Source of the DNA: a virus
Reading direction: 5' to 3' (one strand)
IMG/VR virus record: IMGVR_UViG_3300045110_000102
Location: 1 to 64,000 of that record
DNA: 64,000 bases
Of this stretch, positions 48,009 to 63,800 are shown piece by piece; position 1 is the stretch's first letter, and every line of letters begins with the position of its first letter. Position numbers and translations under genes: made by a program. The notes beneath the pieces were generated by a model. It had not been told where the DNA came from. It did not search any database and was given only the letters and a program-made list of their open reading frames with translations.

Positions 48009-48293
48009 ATGATGATGGGAGCACAGACCAATGGCTCTTCGCGCAAGCGGTTGCGCGGAGAGGTGATCAACCGCAGCAAGAACAGGGACAAGAAGCGCGA
48101 CGCGATCATGCGGACAGTCTTCGCGCGGCCCGGCTTTGCCAGCGAGATCGCCAAGCATCTGGGTGTTTCTCCACAGAATGTTTCTGCATGGAATCGCGTA
48201 CCGCCTCACCACGTGGTCGCGCTCGCGCCTATGCTGGGACTTCCGCCCGAGAAGATTCGCCCGGACATCTTCGGAGGGAGACGCAGGATTTGA
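48009..48293 (+). CDS. Cro/YdaS-like HTH transcription regulator
   Basis: SEIAKHLGVSPQNVSAWNRVP...IRPDIFG. Confidence 0.85.
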   Translation: MMMGAQTNGSSRKRLRGEVINRSKNRDKKRDAIMRTVFARPGFASEIAKHLGVSPQNVSAWNRVPPHHVVALAPMLGLPPEKIRPDIFGGRRRI

Positions 48294-48736
48294 ATTGGAC
48301 CGATGCCGCCGATGCGATGCTGGTCAAGCTGTGGGATAGCGGAGCCTCGCTCGGCTACGTGGCGGATGGATTGTGCCTCGCTGGCTACGTGGTGAGCCGC
48401 AACTCTGTCGCCGGTCGTAAGCACCGATTGACACAGAAGGGCGTGGTCTTCCGGCGCGTCGGTCCACCGATCAGGAGCAAGCCACTACGACAGCCTATCA
48501 ACCAGCAACGGAGCAAACGAATGAACACCAAAGCAACTGACACTCCTGTCGAGCCGTTTGATCACAGTACTCACGAGGGCATCGAGTATCTGGAGAACAT
48601 TGATGGATGCAAGGCCATCCTCGGCAAGCGCGGCGGGGCGTGGATGTTGCCGATGGTGTGCGGACGACGGAGGACAAGCGGAGAGCCGTACTGCAACGAG
48701 CACCTGATGATCTACACCAACCAGCAAAGGAAATGA
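48290..48736 (+). CDS. gcrA: GcrA-like cell-cycle transcription regulator
   Basis: NWTD...LVKLWDSGAS...VSRNSVAGRKHRL and C-terminal CK.ILG...CG...GEPYCNEH. Confidence 0.85.
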   Translation: MNWTDAADAMLVKLWDSGASLGYVADGLCLAGYVVSRNSVAGRKHRLTQKGVVFRRVGPPIRSKPLRQPINQQRSKRMNTKATDTPVEPFDHSTHEGIEYLENIDGCKAILGKRGGAWMLPMVCGRRRTSGEPYCNEHLMIYTNQQRK

Positions 48737-54590: not shown

Positions 54591-54902
54591 ATGATGAAAC
54601 AAATTCCATTGAGGACCTACGACCTACTCGGCGGCATTCACAATCAATCGCCGATGGGATTGACGACAGAGAAGCACTGGTTCGTGCACGATAGCGGACG
54701 CCTCGGCATCGTGCTGCTCGACAACATCGACAAGGACTGGTCGTTCGTTGCGCTGGCGCATGATCCGCGCAAGCCGCACGGCATGTCGTTCCGCTGCTAC
54801 GATGTTGGCGCGAGCTTCAATGCGCCTGACGAAGCGCGCGATGCGCTGGCCATCGCGCTCGATCAAGAACCCGATCCAGTCTTCTTCACGGAGTCGGTGT
54901 GA
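54591..54902 (+). CDS. Hypothetical protein
   Basis: TCAAAGGAG RBS. Confidence 0.7.
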   Translation: MMKQIPLRTYDLLGGIHNQSPMGLTTEKHWFVHDSGRLGIVLLDNIDKDWSFVALAHDPRKPHGMSFRCYDVGASFNAPDEARDALAIALDQEPDPVFFTESV

Positions 54903-55279
54903 TGCAGCACCACAACGAGTTGCTGCTCACGGTGGTGGAGAGGTTATCCGACGCGACCAACCTGCTCCGCATCATTCTTCGTGAACGAGGCGCTACCGGT
55001 GCGATACAAGAGATGCCGGTCGATGAGAGCTTCCTCGACAAGCGTATCGCAGAGATCGACTTCGGCTCGGCGACAACGAAGCTCCACTGGATGTGCTTCA
55101 GCCACTTCGACTGCATCAGCCTGAACGGCGACTATCGCACCACGCCAATCACCACTGTGCGCGATCTAATCTCGCACAGCGAGGATGAGATGCTTCGCGT
55201 CTACAACATCGGACGCATCACAACGAAGCGCATCAAGGCGGTGCTGGCTGCGCACGGCTTCCAACTGAGGGTGCACTGA
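54899..55279 (+). CDS. Protein with an RNA polymerase alpha-CTD-like domain
   Basis: ITTVRDLISHSEDEMLRVYNIGRITTKRIKAVLAAHGFQL matches the alpha-CTD pattern. Confidence 0.75.
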   Translation: MMQHHNELLLTVVERLSDATNLLRIILRERGATGAIQEMPVDESFLDKRIAEIDFGSATTKLHWMCFSHFDCISLNGDYRTTPITTVRDLISHSEDEMLRVYNIGRITTKRIKAVLAAHGFQLRVH

Positions 55280-62705: not shown

Positions 62706-62801
62706 TCAGAACGCCTGTCGCATCATGAGCAATGCGACCACAAGCAGGACAGCAGAGAAGACGGCGACCGCCGCCATCGCTGTCACCTCTTCGGTCCACA
62801 T
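62706..62801 (-). CDS. 31-aa single-TM peptide
   Basis: MWTEEVTAMAAVAVFSAVLLVVALLMMRQAF; GGGGA RBS. Confidence 0.4.
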   Translation of the reverse strand: MWTEEVTAMAAVAVFSAVLLVVALLMMRQAF

Positions 62802-62816
62802 GTCCGGGTCCCCCAT

Positions 62817-62848
62817 AGAAAAGCCCGGCAGCGGGATTGCTGCCGGGC
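62817..62848 (-). terminator. Rho-independent terminator
   Basis: Minus strand GCCCGGCAGC-AATCCC-GCTGCCGGGC-TTTTCT. Confidence 0.8.
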
Positions 62849-62866
62849 CGAGTGCGTCGTTGGTCG

Positions 62867-63343
62867 TCAGCCGTTGTTGATCAGGTCGAGCGCCGCCTTG
62901 CCTGTCAACGGCATCTTGCGAGTCTCACCAGACTTCTTCGCCTTCATCTTCGCGATGCGGCCAGCCGCCTTCGCCTTCTTGACCGAGGCCTGCTCGGCCT
63001 TGATCTCATCGGCGACCGCAGCATCCTTCGCGCTCCTACGTAGGAACGTCGGGATATCGAGATCAACGTCGCGCGGTGGCGGCGTGATCGCGGCATGTGC
63101 CTTGACCGGCGGCACCACCGTGACCGGACCATGCGGCGGGTCAGCGATGAATGAACCGGTCGGAGGGTCCGCAACGAACTTCACTTCAGGCTCCGCCGCC
63201 AGCGCCGCGATCATCTTCGCGCGCGCCAGCCGCTTCGCTTCCTTCTCCAGCTTGGCGAGGTTCGTCATCGTCAGCTTGAGCTTCGTCTTGTTCTTCGCGA
63301 TCAGTCTCTCGACGTGATCGAGGTCGCGCTTCTTCTTTGCCAT
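62867..63343 (-). CDS. Basic coiled-coil protein with an internal FtsZ-C-terminal-like peptide
   Basis: TCAAAGGAG RBS; DVDLDIPTFLRR. Confidence 0.8.
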   Translation of the reverse strand: MAKKKRDLDHVERLIAKNKTKLKLTMTNLAKLEKEAKRLARAKMIAALAAEPEVKFVADPPTGSFIADPPHGPVTVVPPVKAHAAITPPPRDVDLDIPTFLRRSAKDAAVADEIKAEQASVKKAKAAGRIAKMKAKKSGETRKMPLTGKAALDLINNG

Positions 63344-63524
63344 GTTGGCTCCTTTGATTGTCAAACAGCCCGCTCGACGAGCGAGCAGGTGAAGTGTAGC
63401 AAACGCACTTGCGCCAAATCGCGAGTCGAGCCGATGCGCATGCAGCAAACCACTGCAGCACAAGGGTCGAGCATCGCGATTTGGAAAACTTGACTCCGAT
63501 AAATACAGGGCGAGACGCGCGTGA

Positions 63525-63800
63525 TCAGCGCGGATCGTTATCGGAAACCACTGTGAGTGAAGGGGCGACGCTGACGGAAATATTTTTTCCGAGCGTCTCC
63601 TTCGCGATCTCACTGGCGCGGTCGAGCGCGCGAGCAAAGCCATCGTGCCAGCCCTCGCAGTACTCGCGAGCCATCCTGATCTTCAAGCACTGCTCGTCGC
63701 GGTTCTTGTAGCTCCAGCCGCGCACCTCAACGTCGTTGATGGTCACGGTGATCTCGCCTTCATCGTTGTCGATCAGGCGAGGGAAGTGTGGAGTGTTCAT
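63525..63800 (-). CDS. Hypothetical protein
   Basis: AAGGAG RBS. Confidence 0.7.
   Translation of the reverse strand: MNTPHFPRLIDNDEGEITVTINDVEVRGWSYKNRDEQCLKIRMAREYCEGWHDGFARALDRASEIAKETLGKNISVSVAPSLTVVSDNDPR

Follow-up and report, generated by a model that had tools for sequence, protein, structure and literature searches.

FtsA, MinC, ClpX, FtsE and anchors of the ZipA/FzlC type dock on the C-terminal peptide of FtsZ, which is bound by SlmA and ZapD as well. Phage proteins are also known to interfere with the bacterial divisome. T7 Gp0.4 and DicB are such division inhibitors, as are lambda Kil, P1 Icd and SPO1 gp56. The latter three are small early or accessory proteins directed against the host divisome (PMC3961180, PMC11897509, bioRxiv 10.1101/2020.02.06.938217). 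The described inhibitors bind either FtsZ, ZipA, MinC or proteins of the late divisome; none was described as a copy of the FtsZ tail, and full-text literature searches returned no paper describing a phage protein with such a copy. The division apparatus can also be used as a scaffold instead of being destroyed. This is the case for phi29 p1, a membrane-associated protein that binds FtsZ and, according to the passage of PMC3961180 in which it is cited, promotes the replication of phage DNA by associating with the Z-ring.

Free pieces of FtsZ's extreme C-terminus (354-383) are inhibitory to E. coli in vivo, and in AlphaFold models they lie on FtsA 2B (PMC10769210). The peptide alone binds weakly and obtains its avidity from the oligomerisation, or multivalency, of FtsZ (Du, Park and Lutkenhaus 2015, as related in a passage of PMC12607630). 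These inhibitory fragments and synthetic multivalent tails, in which the isolated tail inhibits growth in trans and avidity needs oligomerisation, are the laboratory equivalent of the decoy proposed below, with an artificial host sequence in the place of an evolved phage gene. Small or DNA-bound regulators link FtsZ to DNA or to the cell cycle, among them nucleoid occlusion factors of the SlmA/Noc type and FcrX. Sinorhizobium FcrX, predicted to be a coiled-coil protein of two helices, interacts with FtsZ (PMC11929396), and it is by this description that we liken it to the protein reported here.

Here we describe a gene of a soil phage whose 158-aa product carries a peptide resembling the FtsZ tail. 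The analysed stretch of DNA, from here on the window, comprises positions 1-64,000 of an IMG/VR record of 80,644 bp that is ~95% complete according to CheckV. The protein shares with the C-terminal peptide of FtsZ both the core and the flanks, D-L-[DE]-I-P-x-F-L-R-R, together with a disordered Pro/Ala-rich linker of variable length in front of it. Multivalent display, which results from polymerisation in FtsZ, would in the phage protein depend on a putative coiled coil. In contrast to FtsZ, the phage protein possesses no tubulin/GTPase domain and its peptide is internal, being followed by a conserved basic helix-loop-helix of 55 residues instead of a variable tail of a few residues. To Kil, Icd and gp56 it is similar in kind, with interference with the divisome being predicted in its case, and Pfam, PHROG, NCBIfam and tblastn searches found no sequence relationship to these families. 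Unlike phi29 p1, which binds FtsZ, it would bind the partners of FtsZ, and whereas SlmA binds the FtsZ tail, the phage protein carries one. Phage interference with the divisome is already known, but motif mimicry as its means would be new. If this were true, the protein would target the opposite face of the interface, namely FtsA and the remaining receptors of the tail, by a new mechanism, and it would represent a ready-made competitive ligand, already tested by evolution, for a pocket that serves as an antibiotic target.

Gene and protein architecture

The following features were assigned, in the order of transcription and in window coordinates.

63349..63354, minus strand: AAGGAG, the ribosome-binding site, separated by 5 nt from the ATG at 63343
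62867..63343, minus strand: coding sequence of the 158-aa protein, stop codon included, supported by homologues and an invariant M1
63197..63322, minus strand: long, basic, amphipathic N-terminal helix, residues 8-49 (AlphaFold2 pLDDT ~95), a putative coiled-coil or oligomerisation element
63071..63196, minus strand: Pro-rich disordered linker, residues 50-91 (pLDDT 45-54 at residues ~50-90)
63035..63070, minus strand: look-alike of the FtsZ C-terminal peptide, residues 92-103, DVDLDIPTFLRR, assigned from conservation and FtsZ likeness
62870..63034, minus strand: conserved basic helix-loop-helix tail, residues 104-158 (AlphaFold2 helices 105-138 and 149-157)
62822..62849, minus strand: intrinsic-terminator-like hairpin directly after the stop codon, 11 pairs, 9 of them G-C

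The full translation of the coding sequence is MAKKKRDLDHVERLIAKNKTKLKLTMTNLAKLEKEAKRLARAKMIAALAAEPEVKFVADPPTGSFIADPPHGPVTVVPPVKAHAAITPPPRDVDLDIPTFLRRSAKDAAVADEIKAEQASVKKAKAAGRIAKMKAKKSGETRKMPLTGKAALDLINNG. A longer frame of 258 aa is present; the 158-aa start was preferred because M1 is invariant in the 43-sequence alignment, in which all homologues start at the same Met. The ribosome-binding site was read from the sequence (AAAGGAGCCAACATG on the minus strand). The terminator-like hairpin continues into the tail TTTCTATGGG, in which the T-run is short and weak (TTTCT). Just past this hairpin begins an ORF for a hydrophobic peptide of 36 aa (62706-62816, minus strand; MGDPDMWTEEVTAMAAVAVFSAVLLVVALLMMRQAF). 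Two related phages have it as well (tblastn E 1e-6 and 2e-5), though not next to their homologue of the gene studied here. The upstream neighbour at 63525-63800 (minus strand) encodes a protein of ~91 aa lacking a family assignment, and it is found directly upstream of the respective homologue in all related ~80-kb phages (L004, L006, L013, L018, L029, L030).

An AlphaFold2 model was built with the 43-sequence family alignment. Along the confidently predicted N-terminal helix, hydrophobic residues recur at the 3-4 spacing of heptads, a pattern that is conserved in the family consensus; L22 is invariant, while K31, L32 and R38 are conserved to at least 90% in the alignment. The heptad spacing makes it plausible that the helix forms a coiled coil. 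The linker contains 11 Pro in 43 residues. Its length and sequence are hypervariable across the family, resulting in a gap-rich alignment and in motif starts that range from residue 21 to residue 186. The motif region adopts no secondary structure in the model (pLDDT ~73), and the wider motif D92-A105 is DVDLDIPTFLRRSA, at 63029-63070. In the target protein 57 residues follow the motif core, close to the family median of 58. The invariant residues of the tail are K125, G128-R129-I130-A131, A135-K136, G139, M144-P145, G148, A150-A151 and I155. The net charge is +10 for the N-terminal helix and +7 for the tail, and the protein as a whole is strongly basic.

Most of the architecture had been anticipated in the earlier note on this DNA. 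The strong ribosome-binding site, the own terminator, with the reservation of a weak T-run, and the Pro-rich linker, which is disordered in the model, were all recovered. The coiled coil stood as a confident helix with a heptad pattern, the coiled coil itself being only plausible. The motif is present, and its coordinates, given as 63032-63070, were one codon short. The tail is basic as proposed, although it is more than a mere basic stretch because it is as conserved as the peptide.

Conservation of the family and likeness to the FtsZ tail

A word-indexed search yielded 127 homologues, while a profile search yielded 584 clusters at 50% identity with E<=1e-3, 77 of them with E<=1e-30. Among the matches listed (120 from the word-indexed and 150 from the profile search), all were 70-250 aa long and nearly all came from metagenomic or viral contigs. 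Members of the full-length profile family combine the conserved peptide with a tail of the form GRIAKMKAK...MPLTGKAAL. The family is nameless: Pfam, PHROG and NCBIfam searches with the protein and 43 family members gave no significant or consistent match, tblastn against 50,697 deposited phage records gave none, and neither the whole protein nor residues 92-158 retrieved a usable match from the ESM Atlas. Foldseek found no match of the AlphaFold2 model in the PDB, as expected for isolated helices. Longer fused forms were not found when the whole protein was used as the query, which is weak evidence.

Within this large and nameless family the peptide is strict. I97, P98, F100 and L101 are invariant in 43/43 aligned sequences, and R103 is conserved to at least 90%. 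In the wider set, 221 of 248 members have a strict IPxFL and 19 have conservative substitutions, leaving eight with variants such as IPAALKR. The flanks are less uniform in the family logo, with D(-3) in 160/221, L(-2) in 96/221, R(+5) in 119/221 and R(+6) in 214/221 members. As a DNA pattern, DIPxFLRR occurs once in the window and in 0/100 shuffles of it, and across the six frames of the 80.6-kb phage record there is a single IPxFL. Conservation in homologues had been set beforehand in the earlier note as the point on which the idea should fall, and the peptide passed this test. One distant homologue (L034) keeps helix and tail with a degenerate motif.

The class of FtsZ C-terminal peptides is characterised by the core [DE]-[IL]-P-x-F-[LI]-[RK]-[RKQ] with an acidic/Leu upstream flank, by a disordered linker of variable length and by a position within a few residues of the C-terminus. 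The target protein displays the first feature in DVDLDIPTFLRR and the second in its linker; its peptide lies away from the C-terminus. When the family profile was compared to 177,635 PDB sequences, the top four matches were FtsZ, aligned on the linker and ldIPaFLrrq, with E values of 0.6-0.8 that are not significant alone. A six-frame profile search of 401 genomes of the order Rhizobiales retrieved the true homologue and only four weak matches, all of them linker/peptide tails of FtsZ. Hence, in the PDB as in the genomes, the next-best matches of the profile after the homologues were exclusively FtsZ tails, which bears out the likeness to the FtsZ peptide claimed in the earlier note. We consider it well supported, on these sequence comparisons, that the peptide is a mimic of the FtsZ tail. 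No match to the tubulin GTPase (PF00091) or FtsZ_C (PF12327) domain was found in the phage, and because a GTPase domain is lacking the target protein is no FtsZ homologue.

The FtsZ of the likely host group ends with ...HLDIPAFLRRQAN or ...DLEIPTFLRRQQN. In the Rhizobiales the tails ...DDLEIPTFLRRQQN and ...DDLEIPAFLRRQAN were found, the former (DDLEIPTFLRRQQN) with an IPTFLRR identical to that of the target protein. In the 9.7-Mb genome of Bradyrhizobium sp. SRL28, the only real ORFs with IPxFL[..]R are those for FtsZ (...DDHLDIPAFLRRQAN), for an FtsZ paralogue (...VLDIPVFLNRKAN) and for the prophage homologue of the target protein (...EIDTSIPAFLQRKK). Further IPxFL[..]R sites in this genome were rejected as genes since they lie in antisense or non-coding frames. 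The paralogue (L036, 838-2094) is shorter, at 418 aa, and has its own variant tail, ...EEKVLDIPVFLNRKAN; Bradyrhizobium sp. SRL28 therefore possesses two distinct FtsZ tails.

Genomic setting and host

The structural genes of the phage occupy ~0-40 kb, and the terminase and portal genes 73.5-80.1 kb. Between them, the region 44-58 kb contains RecT, PDDEXK recombination genes, a GcrA-like gene, a gene for an RpoA-CTD-like protein, a primase and a helicase. The RpoA-CTD-like protein has 126 aa (window 54899-55279, plus strand), and its match to the RNA polymerase alpha C-terminal domain is marginal (PF03118, E 2e-5, 24.6 bits vs a cut-off of 23.8). The target gene is located near the distal end of a leftward block from ~71.3 to 61.2 kb, which lies between the replication and packaging modules and consists of ~20 mostly small unknown genes, including a classic AAA ATPase and a DUF6874 protein. 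This block is syntenic in related ~80-kb phages. The AAA ATPase, of the classic clade (G000 68625-70268, minus strand, equivalent to L001 7625-9268; PF00004 plus AAA_lid_3; phrog_8638), is accompanied by two conserved partner genes at 67776-68609 and 67362-67754 (phrog_11021 and phrog_11784), which are likewise syntenic in related phages. In a second, unrelated group of phages, the gene is the last one of an operon that starts with Cro/XRE-type regulators, and it faces lysis and tail genes. It is a non-structural accessory gene in both phage settings.

The phage probably infects alphaproteobacteria, more precisely Bradyrhizobium-like Rhizobiales, judging from its gene content and the homologues of the target protein. 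Its G+C content is ~62%. GcrA is an alphaproteobacterial hallmark, and the phage encodes a GcrA-family protein (window 48293-48712, plus strand; PF07750, E 9e-12, over the curated cut-off), which points to an alphaproteobacterial host and to possible manipulation of the cell cycle.

Homologues of the target protein in genomes were found only in a prophage of Bradyrhizobium sp. SRL28 and in a prophage of an Eremiobacterota MAG. Both lysogenic hosts encode FtsA and MinC; in Bradyrhizobium the gene for FtsA adjoins ftsZ (G001:C186). In the Eremiobacterota MAG, the host FtsZ and the prophage are located on the same contig. This FtsZ ends with DDIDVPAFLRYRG (DIDVPAFLRY) and the prophage protein has DDLTVPTFLQR, so that both members of the pair have Val at the Ile position, a residue that is rare in the family (~2%). 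The Val variant occurs also on a contig labelled Xanthobacteraceae. The pair is suggestive of a phage peptide that tracks the FtsZ tail of its host, but it is a single pair and anecdotal given the Xanthobacteraceae variant. No further prophage-host pair emerged when 401 genomes from the phylum Eremiobacterota and another 401 from the order Rhizobiales were searched. As a receptor for the peptide, a phage-encoded tubulin or FtsA was rejected since no tubulin, FtsZ_C or FtsA domain was found in the phage.

Possible roles of the peptide

We tentatively favor a role for the protein as an FtsZ-tail mimic that would fill the tail pocket of host partners, most likely of FtsA, and would thereby delay or block division; we give this reading a real, if not a commanding, chance of being correct. 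The N-terminal heptad helix is predicted to oligomerise the protein, which would turn an intrinsically weak peptide into a multivalent ligand in the same way as polymerisation does for FtsZ. The peptide would then occupy the FtsZ-tail pocket of host partners. Among these, FtsA is the likeliest, being more widely conserved than the others and encoded by both lysogenic hosts. By competing with FtsZ filaments the protein might delay or block division during infection, while the conserved basic tail that follows the peptide could provide a second contact, with DNA, with the acidic membrane or with the same partner. It is the architecture of a multivalent competitor, made up of a putatively oligomerising helix, a flexible linker and a peptide, that favors the tail mimic.

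Several observations have to be set against a decoy. The peptide of FtsZ sits near the C-terminus, whereas that of the target protein is followed by 57 residues. Conservation of the basic tail equals or exceeds that of the peptide, suggesting that the peptide may not be the main effector. In L034 the motif is degenerate. Finally, enzymes such as MT-A70 methyltransferases carry the same 10-mer, and for them a decoy role is not obvious, which favors a docking tag. We thus regard a division-blocking decoy as plausible and probably too narrow.

The distribution of the 10-mer D-L-[DE]-I-P-x-F-L-R-R was assessed in IMG/VR with a back-translated pattern, which retrieved 33 stretches compared to 1 for the reversed peptide. 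Within ORFs lie 28 of the 33; none of these has a tubulin signature and only one belongs to the family of the target protein. After masking of the motif, the carrier ORFs fell into at least 12 unrelated groups. In four MT-A70 DNA methyltransferases (L048 1389-3737, L055 8679-10049, L057 3067-4740 and L068 3538-5007), a disordered linker is followed by DDLDIP[PTD]FLRR, 2-11 residues from the stop codon. Two other MT-A70 carriers (L060 and L065) have a 95-aa domain after the peptide. The other, unrelated carriers are L052/L061/L063, L053/L056/L070/L077, L072, L074, L071, the DUF5131 proteins L050/L066 and the DUF3102 proteins L047/L051. In carriers other than the methyltransferases, several of which are small proteins, an exact DL[DE]IPxFLRR is mostly situated at residues ~5-20 or at the C-terminus.

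Peptide and basic tail (~92-158) also travel together. They occur alone in proteins of 72-101 aa, after an N-terminal helix in most family members including the target protein, fused N-terminally to a DUF3489 winged-helix domain via an H1-like AKP-rich spacer, and separately fused N-terminally to DUF3102. Examples of such fusions are L032 5947-6588 and P0227. By this distribution, peptide plus basic tail is a mobile module. We consider it quite possible, though short of probable, that the FtsZ-tail peptide is a widespread portable motif of phages and mobile elements, by which unrelated proteins plug into one host hub, likeliest FtsA. With the same reserve, its carriers may be taken to comprise the module of the target family, MT-A70 methyltransferases, DUF5131, DUF3102 and DUF3489 proteins as well as small proteins tagged at the N-terminus. 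That methyltransferases and DNA-binding proteins display this peptide suggests a recruitment code of a general kind. If the peptide is indeed such a portable motif, it would be the bacterial-virus counterpart of the motif mimicry of eukaryotic viruses, and the division-site/membrane hub would be a general landing pad for phage DNA-handling proteins.

These carriers make a docking tag a serious rival of the tail mimic, although we rate it, taken by itself, as rather unlikely. Here, the peptide would recruit the protein and a cargo bound by its basic helices, most plausibly phage DNA, to FtsZ-tail receptors at the membrane or division site. The aim would be to place the protein and not to block division, much as phi29 p1 employs the Z-ring as a replication scaffold. 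The at least 12 unrelated carrier families, the C-terminal peptide behind a disordered linker in MT-A70 methyltransferases, the DUF5131 and DUF3102 carriers and the fusions of the module to DUF3489 and DUF3102 all accord with a tag, as do the strongly basic helix and tail of the target protein and the precedent of p1 (as cited in PMC3961180). A portable tag agrees with these data at least as well as a dedicated division inhibitor does. On the other side, no search supported a HeH/SAP/Rho_N-like or truncated HTH DNA-binding element in the tail. Docking and competition are moreover not exclusive, since any occupant of the pocket competes with FtsZ.

The receptor might also be phage-encoded or otherwise unrelated to division, for instance a partner in assembly or cargo loading, with the likeness to FtsZ being convergent. 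On phage proteins that differ widely from each other, the motif occurs in N-terminal, C-terminal and internal positions, which is reminiscent of cargo-loading or assembly tags, and the family is almost confined to viral contigs. We nevertheless consider such a receptor improbable: the likeness to host FtsZ spans ten residues including both flanks, the carriers belong to unrelated phage backbones without a common neighbour gene, and lysogens combine a prophage copy with an FtsZ of their own carrying the same peptide.

More improbable still is a protease handle, by which the peptide would tether its carriers to ClpX/ClpA. It could then serve as a degron for timed turnover, as part of an SspB-like adaptor (dimer, linker and tether peptide) or as a competitor shielding FtsZ or further substrates, variants that share the same small chance. 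As stated in a passage of PMC5256927, ClpXP requires two regions of E. coli FtsZ for recognition, one of them the C-terminus, and in many carriers the peptide lies at an extreme terminus, behind a linker that is disordered. In the family of the target protein, however, the peptide is internal, and no sequence feature is specific to ClpX.

Chance resemblance in a helical, basic, low-complexity protein, which might be entertained since short motifs can recur and the E values of the PDB profile search are not significant alone, is effectively refuted by the conservation data, with no instance in the 100 window shuffles, a strict IPxFL in the great majority of family members and a 33-fold excess over the reversed control.
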